Below, in pieces: positions 1 through 64,000 of a stretch of 64,000 nt of DNA; within the stretch, counting starts at the first letter, position 1, and each line of letters opens with the position of its first letter. The position numbers and the translations under genes are program-made. Source of the DNA: an uncultured Candidatus Saccharibacteria bacterium (lineage in GTDB: Bacteria; Patescibacteriota; Minisyncoccia; Phycocordibacterales; JACOZG01); the NCBI GenBank assembly GCA_964399075.1, contig CAYNPK010000001.1, positions 55,457-119,456 of the forward strand, in the 5' to 3' direction. Under the pieces are notes generated by a model. The model was not told where the DNA came from. It was given only the letters and a program-made list of their open reading frames with translations, and ran no database searches.

Positions 1-228
1 GGCGCCGTGTTGCTGATACCATTCCTCAATGGCAATGCAGAGCTCGATGAGGGCGTCATTCTTGACGAAGGTTTGTCGATTGGGATGCAATTCAACACCC
101 TTCGCGATGATTTCGCCCTCAAATACTCCAGACGAGAGCGCCGTTACCACCTCTTCGGCTAGCAACCTTTCGGTTGATCGAAGCATGAGGTGGAGGGGGA
201 TACGTGAATCGTCACGCGCTGTCCCCAT
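1..228 (-). CDS. hypothetical protein, partial (C-terminus beyond left window edge); high-GC foreign-looking gene
   Basis: Minus-strand frame is open from about 420 down to position 1 with no stop. It reads ...GRKLPEVVINGTTLFRLFIARKSKKGGRDGRVLMGTARDDSRIPLHLMLRSTERLLAEEVVTALSSGVFEGEIIAKGVELHPNRQTFVKNDALIELCIAIEEWYQQHGA, which is protein-like. First in-frame ATG is at 228; GTG/TTG starts are possible up to about 400. The plus-strand ORF 29..397 is an S/R/P-rich antisense shadow. Confidence 0.35.
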   Translation of the reverse strand, partial: MGTARDDSRIPLHLMLRSTERLLAEEVVTALSSGVFEGEIIAKGVELHPNRQTFVKNDALIELCIAIEEWYQQHGA

Positions 229-571
229 AAGAACTCGACCGTCTCGTCCCCCCTTCTTGCTCTTTCGAGCGATGAAGAGACGGAAGAGGGTGGTGCCGTT
301 TATCACCACTTCCGGCAACTTACGACCTTGGAACTCCGAAGCCACAACGTCTGACCAGACTCGGTGTTCACCCTTCTCGGATGTGGGTCCGAGCTGATGA
401 GCGCCAAAGCGCGAAACAGAAAAGCGGTGAAAAAAATTAGCAGCCACGGATGTCACAATTTATTTGGAAACATCTTGTCGGCCGCTGTGAGGGTTTGAAA
501 AAGTTTTCGAATCTTAACAGTGGACTGACAATGTGTCGGTTCGGAAGTAGGTCTTTAAATTGGAGATTACC

Positions 572-919
572 ATGAGCGTTTGCGAAATCTGCGGCGGCCA
601 CGGCAGCGTCACGATCGTCGAGAAGATCTCATGTGGTGGCGGGTGCTGCGAAGCATTCCGCAACGAGATCGGCATGAAGATCACCAAGGGTCAGAATCCA
701 GAGAAGTGTCCCAACGGCGATGCTGCCAAGCACGCTGCCATTGGGATCTGCTCGGCCTGCGCGCGGCAGCGAGTTCGGCGGTTGCCGACTGAGTTCCCGG
801 AAGGTTGCGAGCATCGGCCATCGGTTTTCAAAACCGTGGTTCCGTCTGCTTCGTCACCGCCCAGGAGCTCTTCGGTCGCCCGCACTTCTGCCTCCAAGAC
901 CCACACGCGTTCGCTGTAA
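572..919 (+). CDS. small Cys-rich protein (possible zinc-ribbon), C-terminal half low-complexity; high-GC block
   Basis: GGAG 7 nt upstream of ATG 572. N-terminus MSVCEICGGHGSVTIVEKISCGGGCCEAFRNEIG...CPNGD...CSAC has several Cys pairs. The true 3' end is uncertain. Confidence 0.3.
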   Translation: MSVCEICGGHGSVTIVEKISCGGGCCEAFRNEIGMKITKGQNPEKCPNGDAAKHAAIGICSACARQRVRRLPTEFPEGCEHRPSVFKTVVPSASSPPRSSSVARTSASKTHTRSL

Positions 920-1045
920 TCCACAACGGCTTGGAAAGTGCCTTTAAACTTTCCCCTGATATTCGCCTGTGTGGGCGGACTGATGATTCCGAAAGGATGA
1001 AATCAGGATGATCTTTCAAACAAATTTTTCCGAAAGGAAATAAAT

Positions 1046-1456
1046 ATGAGTAAGTGGTTTATTCTAGAAGGTGATTGGGGTGGGCAGATTTATTTGACCA
1101 TACCAATCGCCAAAACAACGGCAGAGCGTGCACAGCAGGCTCTTCGCATCATCGATGCGGTTGAGTGGTCTTGTAATGAGCGCAGAGGCGCCTCATTCTA
1201 CACTCAAGATGGTCAGCCGGGCGATGGTGTTTGGGGCGGGATGGGCGGTGGTCTACTTACGGAAGGTCTCTGGACGCATCATCACCTCAACCCGGCACTC
1301 AAACTCTGGGTTGCCTCGTTCCTGATTGGAGAGGCTAATCTCCCGAACCCAGAAACCATGGCCGATTGGCTTTTGGCTGAAGAGCTCCACTGCTACTGCC
1401 CTCGTGAGGAGGCAGTGCAGAAGATGCGCAGAGCCCTTCATCCTCGCCAACCCTGA
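1046..1456 (+). CDS. hypothetical protein (high-GC block)
   Basis: ORF with AGGA-type RBS (aaaggaaataaatATG). Followed by a strong intrinsic terminator. No recognisable domain. Confidence 0.4.
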   Translation: MSKWFILEGDWGGQIYLTIPIAKTTAERAQQALRIIDAVEWSCNERRGASFYTQDGQPGDGVWGGMGGGLLTEGLWTHHHLNPALKLWVASFLIGEANLPNPETMADWLLAEELHCYCPREEAVQKMRRALHPRQP

Positions 1457-1477: not shown

Positions 1478-1512
1478 CCAACGGACCCCACGACTGTGTC
1501 GCGGGGTCTTTT
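1478..1512 (+). terminator. rho-independent terminator
   Basis: GACCCCACGAC...GTCGCGGGGTC stem followed by TTTTTTTTATT. Confidence 0.6.
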
Positions 1513-1584
1513 TTTTATTCAAATATCTCTAAATTTACTACTTTATCTACAGCGCCCGTCGGTTCTTTGTGTTAGAATTAAATA

Positions 1585-3421: not shown

Positions 3422-4180
3422 ATGGAAAATAACAAAAGGAGTAAAGAGGTGAAAAAAACTGACAAAACAAGAAAAACCGTGATTGTTGTAGGCGCCTCGG
3501 GTGGTCTTGGTAGGGTCTTATGTGATGAACTTAGTCGAGCCGGACTCAATCTTGTGTTGGCCGCTAGGGGATTGGAAACCCTGGAGAAAGTGGCCTCTCT
3601 CTTGCCACCAGAGCGGACTTTGGTGATCCCAACTGACGCTAACGATCCGGAAGCGGTCGTGGAACTTTTCCAGCAGGCTCGGGAACGTTTTGGTCGCGTG
3701 GATGCGGTGATAATCTCGGTTGGCACTTGGAAGCAGTTAAGCTTTGGAGATCCGCTTGATTTGGCTACGAAGCTCTTCGACGAACATGTCCGGAGTCTCT
3801 TGCGTCCGAATTTTATCGTCGGATTCGTGGCAGCGCAGTTCTTCAACCTGCAATCAGGTGGGGGATGGATCGTTAATATTTCCTCCCATGCCGCTATCCG
3901 TCCCGAATTGCCGGGCAATCTAACCTACGGACCTCTCAAGGCCGCTGGGTTACACTTCATGCGAGCTCTTGGGGCGGAACTAGTTGGAAGTGAAGTCAGG
4001 GTTACAGACATCGAACCGGCCATCATCAATCTGCCAGGCAATTACGACGCTCTTGGTACCCCCGAAAGGCGAGCCAAAGCTGTCCAACCGCCGGCTATTG
4101 CTAAGTGGATTATTGAGCAGCTTGGTAATCCCAATCCTCCGACAACCAAACTCTTTGACAGTGAAGTGATTTTGCCTTAA
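3422..4180 (+). CDS. short-chain dehydrogenase/reductase (SDR) family oxidoreductase; elevated GC
   Basis: GASGGLG nucleotide-binding motif and YGPLK catalytic Y-x-x-x-K. GC visibly higher than neighbours. Confidence 0.8.
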   Translation: MENNKRSKEVKKTDKTRKTVIVVGASGGLGRVLCDELSRAGLNLVLAARGLETLEKVASLLPPERTLVIPTDANDPEAVVELFQQARERFGRVDAVIISVGTWKQLSFGDPLDLATKLFDEHVRSLLRPNFIVGFVAAQFFNLQSGGGWIVNISSHAAIRPELPGNLTYGPLKAAGLHFMRALGAELVGSEVRVTDIEPAIINLPGNYDALGTPERRAKAVQPPAIAKWIIEQLGNPNPPTTKLFDSEVILP

Positions 4181-4218
4181 TTGCCTCTCTGTGTGACAAA
4201 TATGGCAAAATTAAGACA

Positions 4219-4260
4219 GACGCAAGGTAGGTTCACGCCACCTTGCGTCTTTTTTATTTT
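4219..4260 (+). terminator. rho-independent terminator after SDR gene
   Basis: Perfect 10-bp stem GACGCAAGGT/ACCTTGCGTC followed by TTTTTTATTTT. Confidence 0.65.
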
Positions 4261-11856: not shown

Positions 11857-12016
11857 TAGAAGATAATAATATTCGAATTTAGTCAATATTAGGGTTATCC
11901 AGGCGCGCAAGTCTATTTTAAAGTAATTTAGCAGGAAAATAGCGACTAGTAATATCAAAATTAGCTTAATAATCCCCTTTTGGTTATTTTGTTTGGGTGT
12001 GATTGTCATAAAATTG

Positions 12017-13336
12017 TCATAAATATGATAAAGGGTCTAAATAAGCTTCGATTGGAATAAGAGGGATACGGAAAATGGCTCCCGGACACGCCTTGCTGGG
12101 TAAATTACCGATTGTCGTAGCAGTGCTTGCCACTAGCCCCAAATGTAAATGTGGTCCGGTGCTATAACCGGAATTACCACTATAGCCAATTACGTCACCA
12201 CGATTAACTACCTGACCTTCACGAACCCCAATCAGGCTTAAGTGAGCAAAAACTGACGCTAAGCCATTGCCATGATCAATCATAATCCATTTGCCATACG
12301 AGGCGCCCCGGCAAGCAATATCAGTGTCGCCAACGCCGACAATATTACCACTAGCCGTTGATTTTATTGGCGTTCCCACCGAGGCCCGGAAATCAATACC
12401 ATTATGGAAATTTGAAGAGTAAAGTTTTGAAGCGGCGCTTGTATAACCGAATTTCTGGGTTAAGCATTGGCTATTGCCTAAATCTTTATATAAATGACAC
12501 TTAGACATATCGATTGGCCAGGATAACACACCCCTACCTGCAGAAGGGAGACTCTTTGGGTCAATAATTGCTTTTAATTGAGATTCAAATTCGAATATTT
12601 CTTGTTCGAAAATAGTTCTTCTGGTTTGATATTCGGTTAGTAGTTTACGATAGGCGGCTTCTTCATTTTGAGTTTCGCGTAAAAAAGCTGATTTTGTTCC
12701 TTGTTGATCAGCAACAATACTTTTCTGATCACCTAATTGTTTAGTTAAACCGATCAATTTTTGTCTTTCTGTTTCCACTTCCTCCTGTTGTTGCTTCAAT
12801 CTGTCTTTAACATTTTCCAAATTAGCGATTTGGTCTCGAACTTTTATCTGAAGATTGTTGTGACGATCATATTGAGTGAGTAGATCTGATAGCGTGTATT
12901 TGGACAAAAAGACTTCCGTCAATGAAAGAATTTCTCCTTGGCGCATTTCTCGTAGAGATTCAGCTAGAGCATCACGACTCACACCTAGGTGGTTATTCTT
13001 ATCAGAAATTTCTAGTGATAATTTTTCTAATGTTAATTTGGCTGTTGCGATTTTATTTTCCGTTAAATTAATATCTGTATTAATTTTTTTAATTACCGTG
13101 TCTAGCTTAGTTATTTCGTTTTTAAGACTCGAAGCTTGTTGACTGGTGTTGGTTACGTTTTGTTGATAAATATTTATTTGTCGCTCTAGTTCTTTAATTT
13201 TTAAATTACGTTCGGCTATCTCTGTTTTGAGTTCATCTAAACGTTCAGTTTTAACATCAGCTAAAGCTAATTGACCGATAATTAGAGAAATTAACAGGAA
13301 AAATAAATAGTTAAATTTATAATAAGTCTTTAGCAT
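12017..13336 (-). CDS. M23 family peptidoglycan DD-metalloendopeptidase with N-terminal coiled coil (EnvC-like)
   Basis: Signal/TM, long coiled coil, C-terminal LytM motifs HNGIDF and GPHLHLG. Confidence 0.8.
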   Translation of the reverse strand: MLKTYYKFNYLFFLLISLIIGQLALADVKTERLDELKTEIAERNLKIKELERQINIYQQNVTNTSQQASSLKNEITKLDTVIKKINTDINLTENKIATAKLTLEKLSLEISDKNNHLGVSRDALAESLREMRQGEILSLTEVFLSKYTLSDLLTQYDRHNNLQIKVRDQIANLENVKDRLKQQQEEVETERQKLIGLTKQLGDQKSIVADQQGTKSAFLRETQNEEAAYRKLLTEYQTRRTIFEQEIFEFESQLKAIIDPKSLPSAGRGVLSWPIDMSKCHLYKDLGNSQCLTQKFGYTSAASKLYSSNFHNGIDFRASVGTPIKSTASGNIVGVGDTDIACRGASYGKWIMIDHGNGLASVFAHLSLIGVREGQVVNRGDVIGYSGNSGYSTGPHLHLGLVASTATTIGNLPSKACPGAIFRIPLIPIEAYLDPLSYL

Positions 13337-20633: not shown

Positions 20634-20641
20634 AATCTCGC

Positions 20642-21241
20642 TTATTTTCGCCCCAAAGTGATCTCAATGCCGATTGAACCATACCAGCCGTCAAGATCAA
20701 CATCGGCGCGTCGAGTGAAAGTTTCCGTGAAGTGATAGCCCATTCCCCAAACCACTCGCCAGTCTTTGCTTTTGCTGATCGGAATTTCTCCAATGGCTCC
20801 CAAATTAAGACCGAGACCAGTAAACTGATCCGGGGTGGTCAATTTGATGGGTCCTAGTCTGCCCATCATCCGATAGCGAGCTTGATAGGCTTCCAGACCA
20901 AGGTCTAGTCCCATCACTCGACTGGTTATCGGGAAATAGTGAACGCCCAATCCCCCAGAAACAAATGACCCTTCAGCTTGGCCAGCCAGAACCGGGTGGG
21001 TGGCTTGCACCCCTCCCTGATTGAACTGCAGTTGAGCATAAGCGTCAAGGTTGTCAGTCAAGCGCTGTTTAGCTCGCAGTTCCCACAGCGGAATAACAGC
21101 CTTAGCTCGCATTCCGTTGTATTTGCCACTAATTTGACGTGTAGCAAGGCCCAAGCTACCCCGATCGGGACTAATAACACAAGCCCCCAGAAAACCAGAT
21201 AGTCCTATCAAAACCAGAATTGACGCCTTTCTGATAGTCAC
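20642..21241 (-). CDS. lipoprotein with outer-membrane beta-barrel-like C-terminal region (OmpW/OmpX-like pattern); high GC
   Basis: GTG start with GGAG RBS. Signal plus lipobox LGAC. Alternating-hydrophobic strands (VHYFPITSRVMGLDLGLEAY, WRVVWGMGYHFTE, GWYGSIGIEITLG). GC well above neighbours. Confidence 0.5.
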   Translation of the reverse strand: MTIRKASILVLIGLSGFLGACVISPDRGSLGLATRQISGKYNGMRAKAVIPLWELRAKQRLTDNLDAYAQLQFNQGGVQATHPVLAGQAEGSFVSGGLGVHYFPITSRVMGLDLGLEAYQARYRMMGRLGPIKLTTPDQFTGLGLNLGAIGEIPISKSKDWRVVWGMGYHFTETFTRRADVDLDGWYGSIGIEITLGRK

Positions 21242-22400: not shown

Positions 22401-22439
22401 AAAAAAAGGACCCCATCCACCAATTGGTGAACGGGGCCC
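22401..22439 (-). terminator. rho-independent terminator of the high-GC 212-aa gene
   Basis: Minus-strand GGGCCCCGTTCACCAATTGGTGGATGGGGTCC followed by TTTTTTT. The core contains the 12-nt palindrome CACCAATTGGTG. Confidence 0.65.
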
Positions 22440-22476: not shown

Positions 22477-23115
22477 CTAGACACTTTGCGAGACGACAAA
22501 CGCAAAACCGCCGTCAACATTCCACCTGCTGCCGGGCTTGTCGTAGCACGCATGCAGCAAGCGACCGTCGCGGTACGCACCGAGTAAGTGCGGGAGGCCG
22601 AGGGAGTCGAGGATGAGTTTGTGCATGGCGACGATCCAGGCCAGACCCATCTGCTCGATTTCCTTGTCCGTGAACTTCAGACGGATGAGGCAAGCCAGCT
22701 CGGCGTTGGGGGTGGTCAGCTTGCGCCTCTTGGCCTGGGCGCGGATCTTTGAGCTGATCCGGTCCTCGTCTTCGAAGAGCAGGCCCTTGATCACAGCGAC
22801 TTCGGTGGTCACGCCACTCGTCGGTTTGAAGTCCGAGGAACGGAGCAGCTGCTTGGCGTGGTCTCCAATACAGACGCCCTGGCTCTCCAGTCTGGCGATC
22901 CAGTCTTCGCCGGTCGTGCCGTCCGAGGTGACGCTGAAGCGAATGACGCCGTTTTCCTCGTGCCAGGTGCGAATTGGCTTTTGAGCCACGAGCTCGCCGG
23001 CGAGAAATGCCCGGATACCGTTTGCGGTACTCATTCCGGCATCCTGTCCGATCTTCATGAGGGCCGCGTCCAGCTGTCCACGGGTGAAATGATTCAGTTC
23101 GTTGACCCGACCCAT
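22477..23115 (-). CDS. hypothetical protein, high-GC single-gene cassette (no recognisable domain)
   Basis: AGGAGA RBS 6 nt before the ATG and its own terminator. Inserted between trpS and valS. GC visibly far above flanks. Confidence 0.55.
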   Translation of the reverse strand: MGRVNELNHFTRGQLDAALMKIGQDAGMSTANGIRAFLAGELVAQKPIRTWHEENGVIRFSVTSDGTTGEDWIARLESQGVCIGDHAKQLLRSSDFKPTSGVTTEVAVIKGLLFEDEDRISSKIRAQAKRRKLTTPNAELACLIRLKFTDKEIEQMGLAWIVAMHKLILDSLGLPHLLGAYRDGRLLHACYDKPGSRWNVDGGFAFVVSQSV

Positions 23116-23160
23116 GACATTCTCCTTTCGGCTAATTGCCGAAAAATATTCTCGCTACCC

Positions 23161-23239
23161 GCGAGCTGGGGCCAGACCATTGTGGTCATAGCCAAGAAAA
23201 GCCTAGTTTCTAAGTCCCTTTTGGCTATGACCAGCTCGC
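23161..23239. repeat. long imperfect inverted repeat (about 19-bp arms, one arm carrying a 15-16 nt insertion)
   Basis: gcgagctgg[ggccagaccattgtg]gtcatagccaa ... ttggctatgaccagctcgc. Lies between the valS stop and the start of the high-GC gene. Confidence 0.5.
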
Positions 23240-23278
23240 AAATTTTATTAAAGATCAGATACTCCCCTTAGTAGATAC

Positions 23279-25363
23279 CTAAACCACAGATTTGTCAAGC
23301 GTTGGCCACTTGGCCACAAGCAACAATTCTGATTGATTTATTTTCTCCCAAATTGTCTCGGTGATGAAGGGCATCACGGGGTGGATAATCTTCAAAGTTC
23401 GCAATAACACTGTCGCTAAAATTTTACCAGTGTTTTCTTTTAATTTAGGATCTAATAATTGCTTCTTACTCTCTTCAATATATTTATCAGCCAAATCACG
23501 CCAAACGAAATCATATAAGAAGTGGGTAGCCTGACCAAAATTATAATTCTTAATCTGTGCCTCAACTTCAGTAACCGTCTTGTTAAGCGCCGAAATAATT
23601 AGCTTATCAGCATCAGTTAAGGCTGTGAGTTTAGTCTCTTCAATTTTAATTTCTCCACTTTTTTTATCATCAATAGCGCTAACAACATAACGAGAAATAT
23701 TCCAAAGCTTGTTGCAGAATTTTTTTCCAGTGATTAAAATATTTTCATTGAAACGCATTTCCTGACCTTCGAAAGATTGATACAACAAACCAAACCGCGT
23801 GGCATCGGCGCCGTATTTATTAATCATTTCCATTGGGTCAATACCGGTACCCAGAGACTTACTCATTCGCCGACCGTCTTTAGTTAAAATCGTGGCATGA
23901 ATTACCACATCAGAAAACGGTAACTTGTTGGTAAACTCCAGACCGGAAAAGAGCATCCTAGAAATCCAAAGGTGGATAATATCACGAGCTGAAGTGATTA
24001 CTTGCGTGGGGTAAAACTCTGACAAATCTTTAGTTTTCTTAGGCCAACCAAGAGTCGCCAGTGGCCACAGGGCTGAAGAAAACCAGGTATCAAAGGTGTC
24101 AGTGCTATCGGCGATAGGAATAGGGTGTCCCCACCAAATTTGACGCGAAATACACCAATCTCGAACATTCTCGAGCCAGTCAACGGCAACCTTGGTCCAG
24201 CGTTCCGGATAATAAGCTACTTCCCCATTTTTAATCGCTGTCAAAACTTTTTTGGCCAAGGGGGCCATCTTCAAGAACCACTGCTTAGACATCATTGGCT
24301 CCACCGTTGAGTTACAACGATAACACTTGGCTACATTATGAACAGCTTTTTCCTCTTTCTCAATTAGACCTTTCGCTCGTAATTTTTCAACAATTTTTGA
24401 CCTGGCTTCGGAAATTTTCAAGCCAGCAAATTTTCCAGCGATTGGTAAAAGTTTTCCATATTTATCAATAATTAACTCACCATCTAATTTATGGCGTTCC
24501 GCAATCTCGAAATCAACAATATCGTGATAAGGAGTGATCGTCATCACACCAGTGCCGAAATTCATATCAATTGCCTTGTCTTTAATTACAGTGGCGGTCA
24601 CTGGTCCATTGATCCATTCCAGACTAATTTTCTCTCCATGTTCATATTGTTGATAGCGAGTATCATCCGGGTGCATTACAACGTATTTATCACCAAATTT
24701 TGTCTCTGGTCGTGCGGTGGTGATGATAAAAGGTCCATATTTAAGATAATAAAAGATTCCTTCTTCTTCAACATACTCAAGCTCCAAATCAGAGAGGGCT
24801 GTCTGATCTTTAACACACCAATTGATCACTCGCTCACCGCGATAAATCAAACCCTGTTGGTGATAATTTTCAAAAGCTGTTTTAACCGCCTCTTGATAGT
24901 CTTTGTCCATAGTAAAACGAGTTCGAGACCAGTCGCAAGAACAACCGAGAGTTTTGAGTTGGTTTAAAATAATATCACCGTATTTATCTTTCCATTCCCA
25001 GATTTTTTCCAAAAACTTTTCTCGCCCCAAATCATGGCGACTAAGACCTTGTTTTTTTAAATCTTTTTCTACCACATTTTGCGTCGCAATCCCGGCGTGA
25101 TCAGTTCCGGGAAGCCAGAGGGTTTTGTAGCCTTTCATCCTATGGAATCTGATCAATACATCAGAAATAGTATTTTCCAACGCGTGTCCCATATGAAGAG
25201 AGCCAGTCACATTTGGTGGCGCAATGAGAATGGTATAAGGCTCCTTTCTGTCGCCGGGCAAATTATCCGGGTTAAACAAACCACTCTTTAGCCACTTATT
25301 ATAGATTTTCTCTTCAGTTTCTTTGGGATTATATTGCGCTGTTATTTGATCCATTTGAATCAT
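23279..25363 (-). CDS. valS: valine--tRNA ligase (short form, lacks C-terminal coiled-coil)
   Basis: PPNVTGSLHMGHALENT (HIGH) and KMSKSLGTGIDP (KMSKS); 694 aa. Confidence 0.85.
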   Translation of the reverse strand: MIQMDQITAQYNPKETEEKIYNKWLKSGLFNPDNLPGDRKEPYTILIAPPNVTGSLHMGHALENTISDVLIRFHRMKGYKTLWLPGTDHAGIATQNVVEKDLKKQGLSRHDLGREKFLEKIWEWKDKYGDIILNQLKTLGCSCDWSRTRFTMDKDYQEAVKTAFENYHQQGLIYRGERVINWCVKDQTALSDLELEYVEEEGIFYYLKYGPFIITTARPETKFGDKYVVMHPDDTRYQQYEHGEKISLEWINGPVTATVIKDKAIDMNFGTGVMTITPYHDIVDFEIAERHKLDGELIIDKYGKLLPIAGKFAGLKISEARSKIVEKLRAKGLIEKEEKAVHNVAKCYRCNSTVEPMMSKQWFLKMAPLAKKVLTAIKNGEVAYYPERWTKVAVDWLENVRDWCISRQIWWGHPIPIADSTDTFDTWFSSALWPLATLGWPKKTKDLSEFYPTQVITSARDIIHLWISRMLFSGLEFTNKLPFSDVVIHATILTKDGRRMSKSLGTGIDPMEMINKYGADATRFGLLYQSFEGQEMRFNENILITGKKFCNKLWNISRYVVSAIDDKKSGEIKIEETKLTALTDADKLIISALNKTVTEVEAQIKNYNFGQATHFLYDFVWRDLADKYIEESKKQLLDPKLKENTGKILATVLLRTLKIIHPVMPFITETIWEKINQSELLLVAKWPTLDKSVV

Positions 25364-39569: not shown

Positions 39570-39589
39570 CGCCTCACTCTCCCAGCTTG

Positions 39590-39988
39590 TCAAACACCAT
39601 CAGACTTTGCCGGCGACTTCCAGGCGAGAATCTCTCTTTCAGTCATCCCCAGACGAAGGCCAGAGATAGTGAGCAGTTTGCCTTCGATCTCCTTAAGAGT
39701 ACCGTACCCAAGACCACGAATACAAAGCAACTCATAGTCTCTCTTCCTGACCAATTCACCAATGGTCCGAATTCCAATTTTAACGAGACAATGTCTCGCT
39801 CGTGACGACAATTCAAGCAAGCTAAGTTCGCACTCAAAAATGTCGGCAGGTGAAGTTCTGGGTAACCCAACGAGGGGGTCACAATCTGACCAAATTCCAA
39901 TATATCTCAAGCGAGACTTGAGGGCTTGATTTTCTTTTTCCAGTCTTCGATTTTCTGCTTCGAGATTACTGATCCTGTTCGTCATCAC
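39590..39988 (-). CDS. stand-alone RNA polymerase alpha-subunit C-terminal-domain (alpha-CTD)-like protein with N-terminal coiled coil; high GC
   Basis: C-terminal ELSLLELSSRARHCLVKIGIRTIGELVRKRDYELLCIRGLGYGTLKEIEGKLLTISGLRLGM aligns with E. coli alpha-CTD [58 protein letters not shown]. N-terminal heptad region (LEAENRRLEKENQALKSRL). AGGA RBS. Confidence 0.6.
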   Translation of the reverse strand: MMTNRISNLEAENRRLEKENQALKSRLRYIGIWSDCDPLVGLPRTSPADIFECELSLLELSSRARHCLVKIGIRTIGELVRKRDYELLCIRGLGYGTLKEIEGKLLTISGLRLGMTEREILAWKSPAKSDGV

Positions 39989-50136: not shown

Positions 50137-50164
50137 TTTACTTTATCAAAATTCTCGCTATAGT
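50137..50164 (+). promoter_or_regulatory. putative promoter (TTTACT-N16-TATAGT) for the PRTase-like gene
   Basis: Followed by a strong AAGGAGG RBS 7 nt before ATG 50207. Confidence 0.35.
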
Positions 50165-50206
50165 GGAAGTGGCGCTCTTTAACACCAAGAAAGGAGGTGA
50201 TAAAAA

Positions 50207-50665
50207 ATGAGCGAGAATCTCTTCAGTCCTGAGCAGGTAGGGAGAATCTTTCAGAATCCCGGCCTCTTGGATCAGGCAGCTAATGCGGTCGCCATGACCT
50301 CATATCTTCTAGCCCCAAACGTTGTTCTTGGTCTAGAAGTTGAAGGCTGTGCTCTCGCGCCACGAGTGGCGGGCATGATCCAAAGTCTTAGCCGGCAACC
50401 GGTAAGATTTGCTCTCGATCTCGGGAGTGGAACCGACTTACAAAATCAAGGTGTCTTGATTGTAAGCGACGATCTTCCCGACCAAAAGATTCGAAAGGGG
50501 GTCATCAGAAAAATCGAGAAACAAGGCGGTCGCGTGCTTGGCTTTGTCGCTCTACGGTCGAGCGAAAAGGAAGAACCACAACGGTCTGGGAGGTTTCCAA
50601 CAAGGGAGACTGACCCCAGGATTGAGGTCATTCTGAACGGCGCGGGAGCGAGTGGGAGAACGTAA
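50207..50665 (+). CDS. type-I phosphoribosyltransferase-like protein with degenerate PRPP loop; high GC
   Basis: VLIVSDDL...GGRVLGFVAL resembles the PRTase PRPP-binding motif (VxxVDDxxTTGxT) but lacks the TxGxT. Own RBS, promoter and terminator. Confidence 0.5.
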   Translation: MSENLFSPEQVGRIFQNPGLLDQAANAVAMTSYLLAPNVVLGLEVEGCALAPRVAGMIQSLSRQPVRFALDLGSGTDLQNQGVLIVSDDLPDQKIRKGVIRKIEKQGGRVLGFVALRSSEKEEPQRSGRFPTRETDPRIEVILNGAGASGRT

Positions 50666-50709
50666 GATGAAGTCAGGTCATTTTTCTTCATCCTTTCTGG
50701 GTAAAACAG

Positions 50710-50752
50710 AGCCCCACAAATACACTTCTCAATGTGGGGCTCTTCTTATTTT
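50710..50752 (+). terminator. rho-independent terminator
   Basis: AGCCCCACA-loop14-TGTGGGGCT followed by CTTCTTATTTT. Confidence 0.6.
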
Positions 50753-50771: not shown

Positions 50772-50844
50772 GGGCCGTTAGCTCAGTTGGTAGAGCGCTC
50801 CCATGGCATGGGAGAGGTCACCGGTTCAAATCCGGTACGGTCCA
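50772..50844 (+). tRNA. tRNA-Ala (anticodon GGC)
   Basis: Cloverleaf folds by hand: acceptor gggccgt/acggtcc with G3:U70 alanine identity pair; anticodon loop atGGCat; T-loop ttcaaat. Confidence 0.85.
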
Positions 50845-50884
50845 CAGGTCTCAATAAATAAATTGTTTTATTCAAAAAAATAAT

Positions 50885-51451
50885 ATGAACAAACGAGTAT
50901 TTATAATTCATGGCTGGGGAGGGTCGCCAGAGGGTGCAAGTTTGCCATGGCTGGCAAAAAAGCTCAAAGAAAAAGGTTTTGAAGTCTTTGCGCCCCAAAT
51001 GCCAAATACTGAAAATCCCAAAATTGAAGAATGGGTTTCGCGTCTTGCAGGGCTTGTTGGTACGGCTGATGAAAACACCTATTTCATTGGTCACAGTATC
51101 GGTTGCCAAGCGATCATGCGATATATTCAAACAATAGATCAAAAAATTGCTGGAGCTCTTTTTATTGCCGGGTGGTTTGTGTTGGATAATCTTGAAGACG
51201 ATGAGGATCCTGAAATAGCGCGTCCTTGGATTGAAGAACCAATTGATTTTGAAAAATTAAAAGTTGCTTCGGAAAATTATACGCTTCTTATTTCAGACAA
51301 TGATCCTTTTGGTGGGTTTGAGAAAAATATAGAAGAATTCAAAAAGATGAATGCTAAAATAATCATCCTGAAAGGCGCTGAACATATTGAAGATGTCGAA
51401 TTGCCAATTGCATTAGAAGAAGTTCTTTCGCAATACGAGAAGCACCCTTAG
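50885..51451 (+). CDS. alpha/beta hydrolase (RBBP9/YdeN-like serine hydrolase)
   Basis: FIIHGWGGS, nucleophile elbow GHSIG; about 188 aa. Stop codon lies inside the tRNA-Val 5' end. Confidence 0.7.
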   Translation: MNKRVFIIHGWGGSPEGASLPWLAKKLKEKGFEVFAPQMPNTENPKIEEWVSRLAGLVGTADENTYFIGHSIGCQAIMRYIQTIDQKIAGALFIAGWFVLDNLEDDEDPEIARPWIEEPIDFEKLKVASENYTLLISDNDPFGGFEKNIEEFKKMNAKIIILKGAEHIEDVELPIALEEVLSQYEKHP

Positions 51452-51515
51452 CTCAGCTGGTTAGAGCGTACGATTCACATTCGTAAGGTCGTAGGTTCAA
51501 CTCCTACAGGGTGCA
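51442..51515 (+). tRNA. tRNA-Val (anticodon CAC)
   Basis: Acceptor gcaccct/agggtgc, anticodon stem tacga/tcgta, loop ttCACat. Confidence 0.85.
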
Positions 51516-51549
51516 CTAGAGGAAAAAGAAATGCTAATATTGTCACCAA

Positions 51550-51625
51550 GGGCCGTTAGCTCAGTTGGTAGAGCGCTACATTCGCATTGTAGAGGTCACC
51601 GGTTCAAATCCGGTACGGTCCACCA
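51550..51625 (+). tRNA. tRNA-Ala (anticodon CGC), CCA encoded
   Basis: Identical to the GGC copy except the 17-nt anticodon arm (ctaca ttCGCat tgtag). G3:U70 present; ends ...acggtccaCCA. Confidence 0.85.
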
Positions 51626-52118: not shown

Positions 52119-52151
52119 TAAAAAGGGCCGATGGAAATAAATCCACCGGCC
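52119..52151 (-). terminator. rho-independent terminator of the PEP-CTERM gene
   Basis: Minus strand: GGCCGGTGGA-loop7-TCCATCGGCC (one mismatch) then CTTTTTATT. Confidence 0.55.
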
Positions 52152-52181
52152 GAGTTTTATCTATTGTCTCACTGTGTCAAC

Positions 52182-52775
52182 CTACTGTCGTCGTCTACGC
52201 ACCAGCCCCAGGAACCCGAAACTCATGAGACCAAGCGATGCAGGTTCAGGAATCGGAATGCCAGTGAGAATGAAGTCATCAAAGTGCATCCGATCGCCAC
52301 TACTGTCCATAACGGCCGTTAGTCGTAAGGTGAAATTGGAATTGTCATCCGAAGCGACAGGCAAGAGAAGCGTCTCAGGACGCCAAACTGTTTCGGCCTG
52401 CAGTCCTTCGTAAGCAACAAGCTGCTCCCAATCAATGTTGTTGTTGGAGATCTCAACGCGAATGATGTCTTCATCCAGCTCTATACTCTCCCTTACTTTA
52501 TACCAATACTTGAGGGAGATGTTATGATAGCCAGCTAAAGAGATTTGTCCCATCAACTCATCACCCTGTTCAAACCCAGCACTCCGGCCATAAATATCGG
52601 CACTGAATTGACCAGAATGTGCTGTTTCAGTAGTCGTTCTCCATAAGCCAAAATTTCCAGGGAACCAGTTAGAGAAATTCCCCGACTCGAAATCGTCACT
52701 CCAAATCACTGCCTGGGCCCATGTCGGAACGCAAACCAACAACAACACCGTCACTGCCACAAAAATCGTCTTCAT
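52182..52775 (-). CDS. PEP-CTERM sorting-domain secreted protein; high GC
   Basis: Signal peptide MKTIFVAVTVLLLVCVPTWAQA. C-terminus PEPASLGLMSFGFLGLVRRRRQ is PEP motif, hydrophobic helix, then Arg cluster. AGGAGA RBS. Confidence 0.6.
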   Translation of the reverse strand: MKTIFVAVTVLLLVCVPTWAQAVIWSDDFESGNFSNWFPGNFGLWRTTTETAHSGQFSADIYGRSAGFEQGDELMGQISLAGYHNISLKYWYKVRESIELDEDIIRVEISNNNIDWEQLVAYEGLQAETVWRPETLLLPVASDDNSNFTLRLTAVMDSSGDRMHFDDFILTGIPIPEPASLGLMSFGFLGLVRRRRQ

Positions 52776-55360: not shown

Positions 55361-56080
55361 GAAAGTTTTCCCGAGTTGGAAATTAAAGATTTCAGCGGTC
55401 AAGAATACGAAGAATTGTTTGTCACCACAATGAACGTTGGCTGGGACGCTGACGCTTTTTTGAATGCTCGAAAGCGCGAAGATCTTGAGAAAGTACCGTT
55501 TGGCACATACACTGATCCGATAATCAAAGACTGGTTTGACGAACAAGCTGATCCGGATCTGCCATCTTTTGACAAATGGAAAAAGCTCTCTTCGCTCGGC
55601 AAGAAACAAACATTGTTAGATTGGTTAATGACTAAACAACCAGAAGGTCGCCCAGACCTGGGAACAACACTTCGCAACTTAGTTGCTGAAGAATTAAATC
55701 TCGAACCAGGAGAAGTTGAGAAACTTAAACTCTATTCGTCTACTCATTCGCCTATAGATACCCTCTACGGCGTAGATGGTTTCTTCCGGTATCAAAATCA
55801 AACCGCCACTTTTGACTTAACGACTAATCCGGAAAAATTTGATTCTGGTGTAAAATATGGCAAGGCGGATGAAGTTATTTCTTGCGCTCCCTGGGATGAG
55901 GGCTGTCTCCGTAAGGCGGCTCGTGGCCTCGCCCATGAGATCAGAGCCAAGATTGAGCGAGTCGAAGCTGACCAACGTCAGGGAGCTAGAGATCCACGTC
56001 TCGCTAGTCAAGAGGAGCGTGATCGCGCTATTGCTAATCGCATCAAAGAGTTGAGGAAACGGAGGCGGTTGTTAAACTAG
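55358..56080 (+). CDS. hypothetical protein (acidic, no recognisable domain)
   Basis: 240-aa ORF; Arg-rich C-terminal helix (IKELRKRRRLLN). Confidence 0.4.
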   Translation: MESFPELEIKDFSGQEYEELFVTTMNVGWDADAFLNARKREDLEKVPFGTYTDPIIKDWFDEQADPDLPSFDKWKKLSSLGKKQTLLDWLMTKQPEGRPDLGTTLRNLVAEELNLEPGEVEKLKLYSSTHSPIDTLYGVDGFFRYQNQTATFDLTTNPEKFDSGVKYGKADEVISCAPWDEGCLRKAARGLAHEIRAKIERVEADQRQGARDPRLASQEERDRAIANRIKELRKRRRLLN

Positions 56081-56135
56081 AACGTAAAGCAAGATATTAT
56101 CACCAAGAACTTTTTCTGGTAAGATAGGTAATAAC

Positions 56136-57131
56136 ATGAGGAAAATATTCGTCATCAACTTTGTCGCGATAATGATTCTATTCGTGACGCTCTTTATCGC
56201 CACCAGGTCATCACAGGACGAGAATGGTCAAGTGGCTCTATTATTGCCAACAGTAGAAGCCTCGAAGATGGTGGCGACCTCAAGTCTCACGGTTCGCCCC
56301 AATCAAGCGCCACCACTACCGATTCCCAGCCGGGCGAAATTGAAGGCCGCCTTGCCCCTGCCAACAGCTGAAGCGCAAGCTTATCTTGTCGCTTATCTGC
56401 CACCAGAGGACATTAGCCAAGCAGAAATTCTACTAGAAAAAAACGCCTCGACTCCCCTACCCATCGCCAGTATCACCAAATTACTTACCGCCCTAACCTC
56501 TATAGAAGAATTAGAGCCTTATCAAACTATTACCTTTCTTGAGTCGGCGACTAAGGACTTCATCGATCCTTCAATAATGATACCGGGGGAAACTTTTTAT
56601 ATGCGAGACTTACTACACTCACTATTAATCGAATCTAGTAATGACAGCGCCTTGGCTTTGGCCAAAGAAATTGATCAAACCAATTTTATGGAGCGAATTA
56701 ATTTAACCGCTTCTCGTCTCGGCTTAGATACCACGCGCCTGGTTAATCCTTCCGGCCTTGATCCAGAGAACGACAGCGAACCAAATCAATCTTCGGCAAA
56801 AGATTTACTGAAATTAGTCTCATATTTGCTAATTAATAATCCCGATATTTTAGCGATTACCACTCGCGCTAATTATGATTTCTACACCGCCGATGGCCAC
56901 TTCCATCACCAATTGCTAAACACCAATCAATTGTTAAAGAGCAACGGCTGGCCAGCAGAAGTCATCGGTGGTAAAACTGGTACGACCACTTTAGCCCAAA
57001 GAAATTTAGTATTAATTCTGCGCGACAAATTATCCGGTGGTTATTTAGTTAGTATTGTGCTAAATACTACTAACCACTTCAGTGACACTCGCAATTTGAT
57101 CGACTGGACATATCAAAATTATGAATTTTAA
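56136..57131 (+). CDS. D-alanyl-D-alanine carboxypeptidase (S11, PBP5-type)
   Basis: SxxK (ASITK), SxN (SSND), KTG (GKTGTT); N-terminal TM. Confidence 0.8.
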   Translation: MRKIFVINFVAIMILFVTLFIATRSSQDENGQVALLLPTVEASKMVATSSLTVRPNQAPPLPIPSRAKLKAALPLPTAEAQAYLVAYLPPEDISQAEILLEKNASTPLPIASITKLLTALTSIEELEPYQTITFLESATKDFIDPSIMIPGETFYMRDLLHSLLIESSNDSALALAKEIDQTNFMERINLTASRLGLDTTRLVNPSGLDPENDSEPNQSSAKDLLKLVSYLLINNPDILAITTRANYDFYTADGHFHHQLLNTNQLLKSNGWPAEVIGGKTGTTTLAQRNLVLILRDKLSGGYLVSIVLNTTNHFSDTRNLIDWTYQNYEF

Positions 57132-58527: not shown

Positions 58528-58603
58528 TGGTGGACCCTATCGGACTTGAACCGATGACCTCCGAGGTGCAAGCTCGGCGCTCTACCAACTGAGCTAAGGG
58601 CCC
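58528..58603 (-). tRNA. tRNA-Ala (anticodon UGC), CCA encoded
   Basis: Minus strand: gggccct...agggtccaCCA with G3:U70; anticodon arm ccgag ctTGCac ctcgg. Confidence 0.85.
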
Positions 58604-60978: not shown

Positions 60979-62184
60979 TTATACCATTCGTCTCCGGAGT
61001 TTCCTATGGTAATTGATCGCAAAACGATGGGCTTCTTGATTGAGGGCAACAATAGAGTCACGATGTTCGATAATCAGCCTAGAAAGACCGATGAATTTAC
61101 TGGCTCGATGATGGGCATCTTTAATTACCCCAACCACCGGAATGTTTAATCCTCGCTCTCGTAAAACTTTTTCAAAAGCATTAACTTGAGGCCTCCCACC
61201 GTCAACGATAATTAGTTCTGGCAACAGCCACTCGCCATGACTAAGACGACGATTTAAAACTTCTTGCAAATTGGCAATATCATCAGACTGATCAGACGAG
61301 GAACCTCTTAGCTTGAAACGCCGATAACTATCTTTAGCAAGTTCTCCGTGACGCATTGCCACCATCACGCCAACCGTATGTTTACCAGAGAGATGAGCCA
61401 CATCATAGGCTTCTATTGCAAAATCTGCAGAAGTGGTAATTATTGGCTTCTTAATTAGCGAAACATCCTGAATATGCTTTAAAGCAAAAATTTGTTTTTT
61501 TATCTCCCCCGCTTGTTCAAATTTTTGTTTTTTCGCGCAAGCGATCATTTCTTTTTCCAACTGTTTAATCAGATTCGCCTTTTTGCCCTGAAAAAATAAG
61601 GTGAGGTGACGAATCGTTTTTTTATACTCAATTTTACTCATCGTGCCAGCACAAATACCAGGGCAAAGTCCGATTTGGCAATCAAAACACGGTTTGCCAC
61701 TATTAGGCTTACACTTATCTCTGAACGGAAAGATCTTGCGAATAATCTTCAAACCTTCTCTCAACTCGCCACCATGAGGAAAGGGGCCGAAAATAGTAGC
61801 TGACTTTTGCTCAGAAATATTTCGCTCTCGCACAGCCAGAATCCGAGGGAAATCCTCATCGGTAATAACTACATACAGATAACTTTTGTCATCCTTTTCG
61901 CGAGTGTTATAAAAGGGTTGATGTTTTTTAATTTCTCGTGATTCTAAAATTAAAGCTTCTAAAACAGAATCAGTTAATTTAAAATCAATTTTATTAATCC
62001 GACTAACCATCTGGGCAATCCAAGAACTGCGAGACTTGATTAAATCAGAGCGAAAATAACTTCGAACCCGCGAGCGAAGCGAGGTGGCCTTGCCAATATA
62101 GAGAATTTGTTGATTTTCTCGCAAAAAATACACCCCGGGCGCTTCGGGCAAGTTATCCACTTTCTGTTTGATTCTTGACTCCAT
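60979..62184 (-). CDS. uvrC: excinuclease ABC subunit C, short form (GIY-YIG + UvrBC + RNase-H-like endonuclease domain; lacks C-terminal (HhH)2)
   Basis: GIY-YIG (GVYFLR...ILYIGKA). Cys cluster. C-terminal IIVDGGRPQV...VVGVIKD endonuclease domain. 401 aa. Confidence 0.8.
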   Translation of the reverse strand: MESRIKQKVDNLPEAPGVYFLRENQQILYIGKATSLRSRVRSYFRSDLIKSRSSWIAQMVSRINKIDFKLTDSVLEALILESREIKKHQPFYNTREKDDKSYLYVVITDEDFPRILAVRERNISEQKSATIFGPFPHGGELREGLKIIRKIFPFRDKCKPNSGKPCFDCQIGLCPGICAGTMSKIEYKKTIRHLTLFFQGKKANLIKQLEKEMIACAKKQKFEQAGEIKKQIFALKHIQDVSLIKKPIITTSADFAIEAYDVAHLSGKHTVGVMVAMRHGELAKDSYRRFKLRGSSSDQSDDIANLQEVLNRRLSHGEWLLPELIIVDGGRPQVNAFEKVLRERGLNIPVVGVIKDAHHRASKFIGLSRLIIEHRDSIVALNQEAHRFAINYHRKLRRRMV

Positions 62185-62233
62185 AGGTATATAATTAACT
62201 TAGATAGTTCTTGGCTTCTTTCCCCCTCCGGAA

Positions 62234-62270
62234 AGCGTCGCCCTGCTCCACGCAGACGACGCTTTTTTTA
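62234..62270. terminator. intrinsic-terminator-like hairpin between uvrA and uvrC
   Basis: AGCGTCG-loop16-CGACGCT with TTTTTTT on the plus side and an A-tract on the other. Orientation favours plus-strand (antisense) termination, so its role for the minus-strand uvrA-uvrC transcript is unclear. Confidence 0.4.
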
Positions 62271-64000
62271 TTTCTGCAATATTCGGCGTAAATATTTAGC
62301 CGTGTGGGAAGTCTTATTTCTTGCCACTTCTTCAGGAGTACCCTTAGCTACTACTTGGCCACCAAGATGACCACCATCGGGACCAAGATCAATTACATAA
62401 TCGGCGTTTTTAATAACGTCAAGATGATGTTCAATAACTACGACTGTATTACCTCGATCAACTAACTTTTGCAAAATCATTATTAAATTGTTGACATCTT
62501 CGTAATGCAAACCAACTGTCGGTTCATCTAATAAATAAATAGTTCGTTGAGTCATAGGGCGATAAAGTTCGGACGAAATTTTAACTCTCTGGGCCTCACC
62601 TCCAGACAAAGTAGTGGCCGACTGGCCTAATTCAAGATAACCCAAACCAACTTCAGCAAGAGTTTGCAGTCGATCAGCCACGGCGGGAATATCACTAAAA
62701 AAATTTAAGGCTTCTTCGATAGTCATTCGCAAGACATCATGAATATTTTTTCCCTTATATTTCACTTCCAGAGTCTCTTTCTCAAAACGCCGACCGCGAC
62801 AAATATCACATTGAACGTAAACTGTCGGCAAAAAATGCATCTCCACCGCCACCTCGCCATTACCCTGACAAGCCTCGCAACGACCACCAGGAACATTGAA
62901 GGAGAAACGTCTCGGTGCCCAACCGCGCTCTCGCGCCTCTAAAGTAGCCGAAAAAATTTCGCGAATAAAAGTAAATGCTCCAGTGTAAGTCGCCGGATTA
63001 GAGCGCGGAGTACGACCAATCGGTGATTGGTCAATCAAAATTGTCCGACTAAGATACTCGGCTCCGCTAAATTCGCGACAATTAATAACCTGATTAGAGC
63101 GATAGCGACGATCAAACCGAGCGCGCAAATTTTCGTGCAAAACATCATAAAGAAAAGTCGATTTACCAGAACCAGAAACTCCAGTAATCGCAACCAAGCG
63201 ACCCAAAGGTAAATCGATGTTCAAATTGTGAATATTGTGAATTTTTCCACCTCTGATTTTAAGCACGCCCTTGTCCTGACTTCTTATTTTTTCTGAACGC
63301 TCAATCACCTTATCACCTCGTAAATAATCAACGGTTAGAGAATTAAAAGTATTTTTCTTGGCCGTAAGGAGCTTATCAGTCTCACCAGCAATTACGATTT
63401 TACCACCATGAATCCCCGCCCCCGGACCAATATCAACCAAAAAATCAGAAGCATAAATCGTATCCTCGTCATGCTCCACAACTAAAATAGTGTTACCAAG
63501 ATCTCGCAACTCCAGAAGGGTTTTAATTAAGCGGTCATTATCGCGCGGATGGAGACCGATAGTTGGTTCATCTAAAACATAAATGGCGCCAACCAATCGA
63601 GAACCAAGTTGTGAAGCAAGACGAATCCGCTGAGACTCACCACCGGAAAGAGTGTTAGCTCTCCTGTCTAAAGTTAAATAATCTAATCCAACGTCAAGCA
63701 AAAACTTTAGCCGGGCTTTAATCTCTCGCAAAACAACACTAGCAATTTCTTGTTCTTTCTTAGTCAATTGGAGCTTCTGAAAAAAATCAAAAGCTTCACC
63801 AATAGACAAAGCCACTGCTTCAACAACGCTTTTACGACCAATCAGAACTTGCAAAGCCTCGGGCCTAAGACGAGCGCCTTGGCAATCCGAGCAAGCCTCG
63901 TTACCAAAAAGATGTTTAGTCCCCAAACCATGACAAGTTGGGCAAGCGCCATATGGTGAATTAAAAGAGAAAAGTCGCGGTTCAATCTCGGGATAAGAAA
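62268..64000 (-). CDS. uvrA: excinuclease ABC subunit A, partial (N-terminal about 360 aa beyond right window edge)
   Basis: Frame stays open upstream of the ORF-track start (…PTCHGLGTKHLFGNEACSDCQG zinc finger) to position 64000. Two ABC signatures (LSGGESQRIRLA, LSGGEAQRVKIS); Walker A GVSGSGKST. Confidence 0.9.
   Translation of the reverse strand, partial: SYPEIEPRLFSFNSPYGACPTCHGLGTKHLFGNEACSDCQGARLRPEALQVLIGRKSVVEAVALSIGEAFDFFQKLQLTKKEQEIASVVLREIKARLKFLLDVGLDYLTLDRRANTLSGGESQRIRLASQLGSRLVGAIYVLDEPTIGLHPRDNDRLIKTLLELRDLGNTILVVEHDEDTIYASDFLVDIGPGAGIHGGKIVIAGETDKLLTAKKNTFNSLTVDYLRGDKVIERSEKIRSQDKGVLKIRGGKIHNIHNLNIDLPLGRLVAITGVSGSGKSTFLYDVLHENLRARFDRRYRSNQVINCREFSGAEYLSRTILIDQSPIGRTPRSNPATYTGAFTFIREIFSATLEARERGWAPRRFSFNVPGGRCEACQGNGEVAVEMHFLPTVYVQCDICRGRRFEKETLEVKYKGKNIHDVLRMTIEEALNFFSDIPAVADRLQTLAEVGLGYLELGQSATTLSGGEAQRVKISSELYRPMTQRTIYLLDEPTVGLHYEDVNNLIMILQKLVDRGNTVVVIEHHLDVIKNADYVIDLGPDGGHLGGQVVAKGTPEEVARNKTSHTAKYLRRILQK

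Follow-up and report, generated by a model that had tools for sequence, protein, structure and literature searches.

In Patescibacteria, the bacteria of the candidate phyla radiation (CPR), genes for competence are prevalent, and other members of the phylum are the source of 83% of the inferred incoming gene transfers (PMC12455944). The same bacteria have been proposed to be without an outer membrane (PMC12102498), and one clade of diversity-generating retroelements (DGRs) is restricted to them, with remote or orphan targets being missed by standard detection (PMC8144416). Earlier surveys have taken the GC content of whole DGRs as an indicator of horizontal gene transfer (HGT) and have described short GC-rich elements that flank the mutagenised region (PMC5758913). 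Here, we analyze a stretch of 64,000 nucleotides from contig CAYNPK010000001.1, called the window in what follows, in which an initial annotation had singled out seven short GC-rich blocks and read them as single genes acquired repeatedly from high-GC, possibly diderm, donors, or else as an unrecognised type of mobile cassette. Our analysis leads to a different reading, namely that the blocks are reasonably likely to be small accessory genes exchanged within Patescibacteria, together with one gene family that is intrinsically rich in GC. As a phenomenon, the GC pattern is ordinary; the interest lies in its by-products, these being an apparently orphan DGR target gene, a structured leader RNA and a predicted barrel lipoprotein.

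Composition of the blocks and relatives of their genes

Judging by protein identity and gene order, the window is chromosomal DNA of a Patescibacteria bacterium (CPR; Paceibacteria/Parcubacteria-like). Its tryptophanyl-tRNA synthetase (TrpRS) is 55-68% identical to those of metagenome-assembled genomes (MAGs) of Vogelbacteria, Paceibacterota, Campbellbacteria and Zambryskibacteria, with gene order kept, and no close relative of the genome was found among species representatives. The backbone encodes DnaB, RecR, RmuC, ribosomal proteins, DnaK/DnaJ/GrpE, MraY-FtsW-MurG and many aminoacyl-tRNA synthetases, and has a GC content of about 0.39-0.40, the overall value for the window being 0.409; related genomes span 0.30-0.53. 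We refer to the blocks as c1 (1-1520), c2 (3422-4180), c3 (20602-21241), c4 (22385-23270), c5 (39537-40055), c6 (50137-50752) and c7 (52119-52775). Segmentation by a two-state hidden Markov model (HMM) returned GC-rich segments at 1-1508 (GC 0.54), 3491-4095 (0.55), 20649-21190 (0.52), 22408-23193 (0.59) and 50209-50662 (0.53), made no GC-rich call at 39537-40055 or 52119-52775, and added one segment not listed before, 55884-56470 (0.51). Taken against backbone windows of equal length, GC z-scores come to 6.1 for c1, 5.8 for c4, 3.5 for c2, 3.2 for c6, 2.9 for c3, 2.3 for c7 and 1.5 for c5. At third codon positions (GC3), 39 backbone genes have a mean of 0.342 (sd 0.050), whereas the open reading frames (ORFs) of the blocks lie between 0.44 and 0.78; the resulting z-scores are 8.6 for c4, 7.4 and 3.9 for two ORFs of block 1 (c1b and c1c, respectively), 3.4 for c7, 3.2 for both c2 and c6, 2.4 for c3 and 2.0 for c5. 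In other words, the atypical composition claimed for seven blocks is strong for five of them, moderate for 52119-52775 and marginal for 39537-40055. The blocks are not intergenic, as they had been called; they are ORFs, and in c2 the GC-rich tract falls within the ORF. On the other claims about their layout the initial annotation was right, in that each unit has its own Shine-Dalgarno site of the GGAGG type and a 3' hairpin followed by a T-run (direct reading). On either side of the blocks lie core genes of the cell, for tRNA synthetases, DnaB and ribosomal proteins, and the units are scattered over 52 kb.

The gene of c2 (3449..4180, plus strand) encodes a short-chain dehydrogenase/reductase (SDR; Pfam adh_short, E 2.3e-27) and is followed by a terminator-like hairpin at 4218..4258 on the plus strand, which was found both by direct reading and by a terminator scan that flagged 4218-4250. 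Its close family comprises ~50 relatives at 43-57% identity, which, where named, are Zambryskibacteria, Paceibacterota and Patescibacteria; beyond this family, scores fall from 145 to 82 bits, to generic SDRs of other phyla, the identity to non-CPR proteins being 30-35%. It is on these grounds that c2 is assigned to a Patescibacteria-specific SDR subfamily. The best relative stands in the same context (RmuC...SDR-L21-RecR-DnaB, then cysteinyl-tRNA synthetase) at locus L098, which has a backbone GC of 0.50 and a DnaB with 76% identity; the SDR of that locus, at 0.53 GC, is not an island. Namely, the GC of the c2 family tracks the host, since in a Zambryskibacteria locus of 0.40 GC the SDR stands at 0.44.

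The gene of c3 (20642..21241, minus strand) encodes a lipoprotein with a conserved lipobox cysteine, Cys21, and a predicted 8-stranded beta-barrel of the OmpX/Ail/OmpA type. The initial label of a beta-barrel-like lipoprotein is upheld by structure prediction: the AlphaFold model is an 8-stranded antiparallel barrel with a pLDDT of 92.5, and Foldseek matches it with a probability of 1.00 and E of about 1e-5 to Ail, OmpA-TM, OmpX, OprF and OmpW. No C-terminal aromatic beta-signal for insertion dependent on the barrel assembly machinery is present either in c3, which ends in ...EITLGRK, or in the family consensus. The best relative, orthologue P0128 at 46% identity, occupies the identical slot at locus L092, upstream of the synthetase gene AsxRS and of ScpA-ScpB-MraY-FtsW-MurG, where backbone GC is 0.53 and AsxRS is 76% identical. 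What makes c3 worth attention is that an outer-membrane-type barrel lipoprotein is confidently predicted in a lineage believed to be without an outer membrane. As to composition, c2 and c3 both have a backbone-like dinucleotide signature and a codon usage that lies outside the backbone range, between the backbone and relatives of 50-53% GC. Given that their homologues exceed their hosts in GC by only +0.03 to +0.04, the c2 and c3 families are not intrinsically GC-rich. What is more, their syntenic slots suggest that one is dealing with allelic replacement and not with new insertion.

Block 1, taken initially for a single-gene cassette, turned out to be the right-hand portion of a four-gene GC-rich island of 2.7 kb, which starts ~1.2 kb to the left of the window and sits between an FtsX/MacB gene and RmuC (full locus L161). 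Within the window it comprises the 5' part of a 378-aa ORF, the second gene of the island (1..456, minus strand), which is an open frame here and complete in L161, with a GC content of 0.554 and no Pfam or PADLOC match; c1b (572..919, plus strand), encoding a Cys-rich protein of 115 aa with a GC3 of 0.72 and relatives at ~50% identity; and c1c (1046..1456, plus strand), the last gene, encoding a 136-aa protein whose family lies at 40-57% identity. A terminator-like GC hairpin with a T-run closes the island (1483..1517, plus strand; direct reading), the HMM boundary being at 1508. Homologues of c1b and c1c are also neighbours in L094/L095, and relatives of the two occur on a 1.0-Mb contig that is not assigned to a lineage; in L094, the stretch around the c1c homologue, not far from a TrbC-like gene, is locally rich in GC, the homologue standing at +0.07 over its surroundings.

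The gene of c7 (52182..52775, minus strand) encodes a predicted secreted protein with a C-terminal PEP-CTERM sorting motif, an assignment already made at the outset and now backed by Pfam PF07589 (E 8.5e-6) and NCBIfam TIGR02595. Its C-terminus, ...PEPASLGLMSFGFLGLVRRRRQ, has the PEP motif, the hydrophobic helix and the basic tail all in place. The family lies at 30-48% identity, and one homologue is found in L096, a contig with a GrpE at 60% identity to that of the window, the gene having a GC content of 0.51 against 0.41 for its surroundings. Within L096:1666-6867, the neighbours of this homologue are a KAP NTPase and the two genes, N6_N4_Mtase and MvaI_BcnI, of a type II restriction-modification system, which marks the region as one of defence or of variable content. 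In the literature searched, no joint mention of PEP-CTERM, exosortase and Patescibacteria was found. The claim that the encoded proteins are not typical of a reduced genome holds in part: in what is presumed to be a monoderm, one would expect neither an OmpX/Ail-like barrel nor a PEP-CTERM protein, and yet both families have members on Patescibacteria contigs.

The small protein of c5 (39590..39988, minus strand) contains a helix-hairpin-helix like that of the C-terminal domain of RNA polymerase alpha, and the match to Pfam RNA_pol_A_CTD (E 3.3e-13) agrees with the label it had been given. Its composition is marginal: 7.8% of backbone windows are as GC-rich, and its codon score is inside the backbone range. 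The 152-aa product of c6 (50207..50665, plus strand) is an ORFan, with a self-match only among the best 150 matches of an exhaustive search. Its description as a degenerate phosphoribosyltransferase has to be dropped, there being no Pfam match even at E<=10.

Taken across the cassettes, best relatives are 44-71% identical, and, when clustered at 90% identity, each cassette protein that the collection contains stands alone. For c2, c3, c4 and c7, the nearest relatives come from Patescibacteria contigs or named MAGs, the lineage being read from gene context in the case of c3 and c7; c5 and c6 could not be placed. The slots themselves vary. In particular, histidine kinase (HisK), TrpRS and AsxRS are directly adjacent in L007, L012 and L014, such that the slots of c3 and c4 are empty there, and in other relatives unrelated inserts of 0.6-5 kb occupy these same junctions. 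Between the histidine kinase and TrpRS, the window has a core-type gene, with the GC content normal for the backbone, that encodes a class-I aminoacyl-tRNA synthetase of 694 aa (23279-25363, minus strand); because these two adjoin in relatives, this synthetase has also been relocated into the variable junction of c4.

The c4 gene family and its leader RNA

The gene of c4 (22477..23115, minus strand; 212 aa, GC 0.60, GC3 0.78) appears to be an orphan copy of a CPR-wide DGR variable-protein gene. Its product has no Pfam domain, and the gene is followed by a terminator-like hairpin with a T-run (22401..22439, minus strand; direct reading). Homologues number at least 1494, at 60-71% identity over the full length, and the named ones are Parcubacteria, Uhrbacteria, Wolfebacteria, Minisyncoccota and 'Patescibacteria group'. 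At homologue loci, the gene is followed in the 3' direction by a spacer of ~330 nt, a copy of ~130 nt of its own 3' end (the template repeat, TR), bAvd (PF22296) and a reverse transcriptase (RT; RVT_1), the RT adjoining c4 homologues in at least 14 other loci. Mismatches between the TR and the variable repeat (VR) of the gene fall at TR adenines only, 18/18 in L088 and 17/17, 20/20 and 12/12 elsewhere, and because adenine-confined TR/VR differences are diagnostic, these loci are diversity-generating retroelements. In the protein alignment of the family, hypervariable columns are confined to the last ~45 residues. At L084/L100:6511-7109, 10 of 16 VR/TR mismatches are at adenines, as compared with 100% in sister loci, which suggests a DGR that is decaying or non-canonical.

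In the window, tblastn with the RTs of L084 and L088 found no DGR-type RT, tblastn likewise found no Avd, and the 3' end of c4 is not repeated anywhere, so that a TR is missing as well. RT, Avd and TR are absent also at ten other c4-family loci with at least 3 kb of sequence on each side. The VR-equivalent 3' segment of c4 (22477..22620, minus strand) is apparently frozen: it carries a two-codon deletion that is unique in the family, and E>K, P>L, W>L and R>V substitutions at VR scaffold positions that are 90-100% conserved. More generally, the VR scaffold has decayed in orphans, with 2.9 departures at 21 conserved positions as against 0.32 in copies that are not orphaned (p = 3.5e-5), the rest of the protein hardly differing. 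As the window holds no RT, Avd or TR and the VR scaffold has decayed, we conclude that c4 is probably a stranded, frozen target, in which promoter, leader and ORF have been kept. About half of the c4-family members would be stranded copies of this kind, their VRs decaying after the loss of the retroelement.

The high GC content of c4 is found throughout its family. Namely, the difference in GC between gene and flanks has a mean of +0.119 and a range of +0.024 to +0.215, exceeding +0.05 at 32 of the 34 loci that have a complete gene and adequate flanks. In 14 intact DGR cassettes, mean GC is 0.55 for the target (GC3 0.65), 0.395 for its own RT (GC3 0.41) and 0.445 for the host flanks. The loci of the family span L084-L160, and an example of the contrast between target and RT can be seen at L088:6001-8519. 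Gene GC follows host GC with r = 0.65, and the offset is equal in orphan and in TR-linked copies. If a foreign donor had left its mark, one would expect to see it over the entire cassette and independent of host GC, and for this reason the enrichment is gene-specific. High GC is, then, a trait of the c4 gene family in nearly all hosts examined, and not the trace of a foreign donor. An adenine-specific depletion, which would have provided a DGR-linked cause, was considered and rejected, A and T both being depleted and C enriched at third positions (A 0.13, T 0.22, G 0.28, C 0.37). In the passages of PMC8144416 and PMC5758913 that were searched, there is no mention of the GC contrast between target and RT or of a structured 5' leader.

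At the nucleotide level, similarity among members of the family reaches ~190 nt upstream of the start codon. The alignment has a conserved TTGACA/TATAAT promoter, followed by a 5' untranslated region (UTR) of ~140 nt; in the window, the promoter-like region lies at 23265..23298 (minus strand), with the family-conserved TTGACA as its -35 element and a degenerate -10 element. The predicted leader RNA of c4 itself (23110..23249, minus strand) matches a covariance model, built from five sequences, with 149.8 bits and is the only occurrence in the window, with a fold z-score of -5.1. The leader lies directly upstream of the gene in ~38 loci, DGR-linked and orphan alike (e.g. L088:5869-6006 and L090:5862-6006), and consists of a long hairpin P1, two short hairpins and a closing helix. 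The last of these forms between the leader and the first codons, and within it lie the two short hairpins, the Shine-Dalgarno site and the AUG. Of the 18 pairs of P1, 14 show double compensatory changes when 33 sequences are aligned by MAFFT without regard to structure. In the model-based alignment, 91.9% of cells are paired, as compared with 72.4% in shuffled and 32-45% in slid alignments, and 32 of 37 pairs covary, with a score of 0.56 against 0.21 for shuffled and at most 0.10 for slid ones; none of 500 shuffles reached the observed values. No family of Rfam 15 (4227 families), RT-associated motifs (PMC5737381) included, matches the leader at gathering thresholds, and relaxing the cut-off, to E<=10 for 22350-23320 and to E<=1 for the active locus L088, brought up no credible Rfam match either. 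The layout suggests translational control. It is this combination, a structured leader RNA that has not been catalogued and that accompanies a gene family targeted by hypermutation in dozens of CPR genomes, that we consider significant.

Putting these elements together, one can sketch a broader proposal, which we regard as possible and put forward tentatively. It holds that the leader represents a new class of cis-regulatory RNA controlling the translation of DGR-diversified CPR proteins, that the gene-specific GC excess of ~+0.12, which is not seen in the RT and is kept in orphans, would come from selection on the mRNA or from biased conversion, and that the c3 barrel family would be used without an outer membrane, possibly at the interface with a host.

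Origin of the blocks

In the reading that we favor, the core genes would have drifted to ~39-40% GC, and small, self-expressed accessory genes from the flexible gene pool of Patescibacteria would lie between them, a pool that includes lineages of 50-53% GC (e.g. L098 and L092). The blocks would then fall into three groups. The first, with GC3 values of 0.47-0.59, would consist of imports or allelic replacements from higher-GC relatives and include c2, c3, c6, c7, c1c and two unnamed genes of island 1; the route would be DNA uptake and homologous recombination via the conserved flanking core genes, and it is recombination through these genes that we propose as the reason why slots are conserved without integrases or repeats. 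The second group would be c4, whose GC is apparently held high by a gene-specific force in nearly all hosts examined, with c1b, otherwise a part of island 1, joining it by composition alone. The third, c5 and the 55.9-kb stretch, would be normal backbone variation. The initial idea that single accessory genes arrived repeatedly is therefore plausible for most blocks, given a codon usage outside the backbone range and empty slots in relatives; it is the source that has to be revised.

Several points speak against this reading. Neither a donor nor a near-identical allele was found, and the argument for transfer is drawn from composition and synteny. The syntenic presence of c2 and c3 in relatives could mean that they are ancestral, in which case their GC excess would be unexplained. 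The ends of the GC-rich tracts are abrupt, coinciding with ORF limits or falling within the ORFs, and the flanking core genes are left untouched, whereas tracts of simple homologous recombination would be expected to run on into them. In addition, c7 and c1c, being richer in GC than their surroundings in one other host each, may point to a wider intrinsic cause. For c6, without detectable relatives among the best 150 matches, no origin could be placed. As for c4, the searches cover 64 kb of a contig of 353 kb, and a DGR elsewhere in the genome may act on it in trans.

What are the alternatives to exchange within Patescibacteria? Some of the points just raised lead directly to the view that gene-intrinsic GC enrichment explains all blocks, such that no recent transfer is needed; the genes, which encode surface, secreted or diversifying proteins, would be held GC-rich whatever the host, through selection at synonymous sites or GC-biased conversion at hot spots of recombination. 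We consider this unlikely, if still the strongest competitor: the c4 family keeps its offset whatever the host, with its own RT not enriched, homologues of c7 and c1c exceed their surroundings in other hosts by +0.10 and +0.07, and the GC-rich tracts are confined to ORFs, with c2 and c3 syntenic in relatives. However, the homologues of c2 and c3 are barely above their hosts L092, L098 and L099, no mechanism is known, and the excess in c4, not being adenine-specific, has no direct link to DGR mutagenesis. Acquisition of single genes directly from high-GC, possibly diderm, donors outside the phylum, as proposed initially, is in our opinion improbable. The composition is clearly above the backbone, and two products do have features of diderm type, namely the OmpX/Ail-like barrel and the PEP-CTERM motif; yet it is among Patescibacteria that c2, c3, c4 and c7 have their closest homologues, two of them in the same syntenic slot, non-CPR SDRs come only after the large gap in scores described above, and the c3 barrel family is without the C-terminal aromatic beta-signal, so that any diderm origin would be ancient and on the level of the family.

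The other initial proposal, an unrecognised mobile cassette type that delivers single genes with their own expression signals, fares still worse, and we hold it to be highly improbable. It would account for a Shine-Dalgarno site and a terminator in each unit placed between core genes, and for the same junctions carrying different inserts in different relatives. That said, no sequence common to the cassettes and no att-like motif was found, similarities between cassette ends being 12-17-mers at chance level; repeats at the boundaries are at longest 6-9 nt, no better than at random position pairs, and searches for target-site duplications gave chance-level matches only. Among the ORFs scanned, no recombinase domain is present in the blocks or their neighbours, and the initial statement that integrases, transposases and flanking repeats are not visible thus stands. 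Scans of viral contigs with c4, c1c, c6 and c5 gave no matches, among the cassette proteins the SDR alone has a PHROG match, to a generic FabG-like family, and in PADLOC nothing came up beyond a weak similarity between PglW and the c5 helix-hairpin-helix segment, such that there are no viral or defence-system links. What is more, the functions, compositions and dinucleotide signatures are heterogeneous, and block 1 holds four genes. Finally, the sharp compositional switches might bring to mind an artefact of assembly or binning, in which contaminant fragments were joined into the contig, a notion that we find hardly credible. Because the junctions of cassettes c1-c4 are 100% identical to the window in three separately assembled runs (SRR11845627, -28, -29), their mis-assembly is very unlikely, just as the initial annotation had argued against a chimeric join; in addition, homologous genes occur in the same slots in relatives, and the promoters and terminators that border the cassettes are AT-rich and host-like. 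GC-rich islets in low-GC genomes are routinely read as distant imports, a reading that fails here, and we see in this a caution for composition-based calls of HGT and of contamination in CPR MAGs.

Structured-RNA genes as a cause of the GC islands were also considered and rejected: Rfam at gathering thresholds and ARAGORN find four tRNAs only, and the blocks have a GC distribution over codon positions of the coding type. The tRNAs, three tRNA-Ala isoacceptors (GGC, CGC, UGC) and one tRNA-Val, lie within 8 kb (50772-51625; 58528-58603), c6 ending ~100 nt before tRNA-Ala(GGC) at 50772-50845; the first cluster is flanked by c6 and c7, with no tRNA-derived repeats and no integrase there. The additional GC-rich stretch called by the HMM (55884..56470) runs from the last part of one ORF into the first part of a gene for a D-Ala-D-Ala carboxypeptidase; with an ORF GC3 z-score of 1.5 and Ala/Pro/Arg-rich segments in the translations, it is not a cassette. 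The leucyl-tRNA synthetase (45129-48071, minus strand; 980 aa) has a NUDIX-domain match inserted after its editing domain, at residues 444-545, scoring 23.9 bits against a cut-off of 21.1. Cumulative GC skew reaches a maximum at ~12000-13500 and then declines steadily to the end of the window, along a long run of minus-strand genes; the peak could be a replication terminus or a mere effect of gene orientation.

Relation to described systems

The blocks can be compared with the transferred genes and small islands of groundwater Patescibacteria (PMC12455944), where, likewise, atypical composition marks individual genes or short islands within streamlined CPR genomes, and for which most inferred donors are other Patescibacteria and competence-mediated uptake was proposed. 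In contrast to those cases, the imports here are richer in GC than the recipient, and no donor was identified. Phage morons offer another parallel, being one ORF with its own promoter or Shine-Dalgarno site, its own terminator and an atypical GC content between conserved genes. However, the neighbours of our blocks are cellular core genes and not a prophage, and c4, c1c, c6 and c5 have no matches on viral contigs. Integron gene cassettes are single-ORF units as well, but here attC sites, an intI/attI platform and an array are all missing, and the units are scattered and carry their own expression signals. In particular, the 3' hairpins of the blocks are unrelated in sequence and followed in each case by a T-run, which makes them terminators and not attC sites; no integron integrase was found among the ORFs scanned, and c4 has its own promoter. 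Integrase-mediated genomic islands differ in that the blocks and their neighbours have no recombinase and no flanking direct repeats beyond chance.

To turn to the genes themselves, c3 is in its predicted fold like the small 8-stranded outer-membrane barrels OmpX, Ail, OmpA N-domain and OmpW, with TM-scores of 0.5-0.65; it differs from them in its lipoprotein signal peptide, in having no C-terminal aromatic residue and in an identity of only ~10%. The gene of c4 is 60-71% identical to the VR-bearing targets of the CPR-restricted DGRs, which are assigned to clade 2 in PMC8144416 and to the 'CPR set'/UVR classes in PMC5758913, and is unlike them in being a copy without TR, Avd and RT within 64 kb and with a decayed VR scaffold. 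Its leader, while matching no family of Rfam 15 and being tied to one CPR gene family, in contrast to known leaders, is otherwise built as one would expect of translational-control leaders and riboswitch-type 5' UTRs: it fills the ~140 nt between a sigma-70-like promoter and the start codon, with helices that covary and with the Shine-Dalgarno site and the AUG shut inside a helix.

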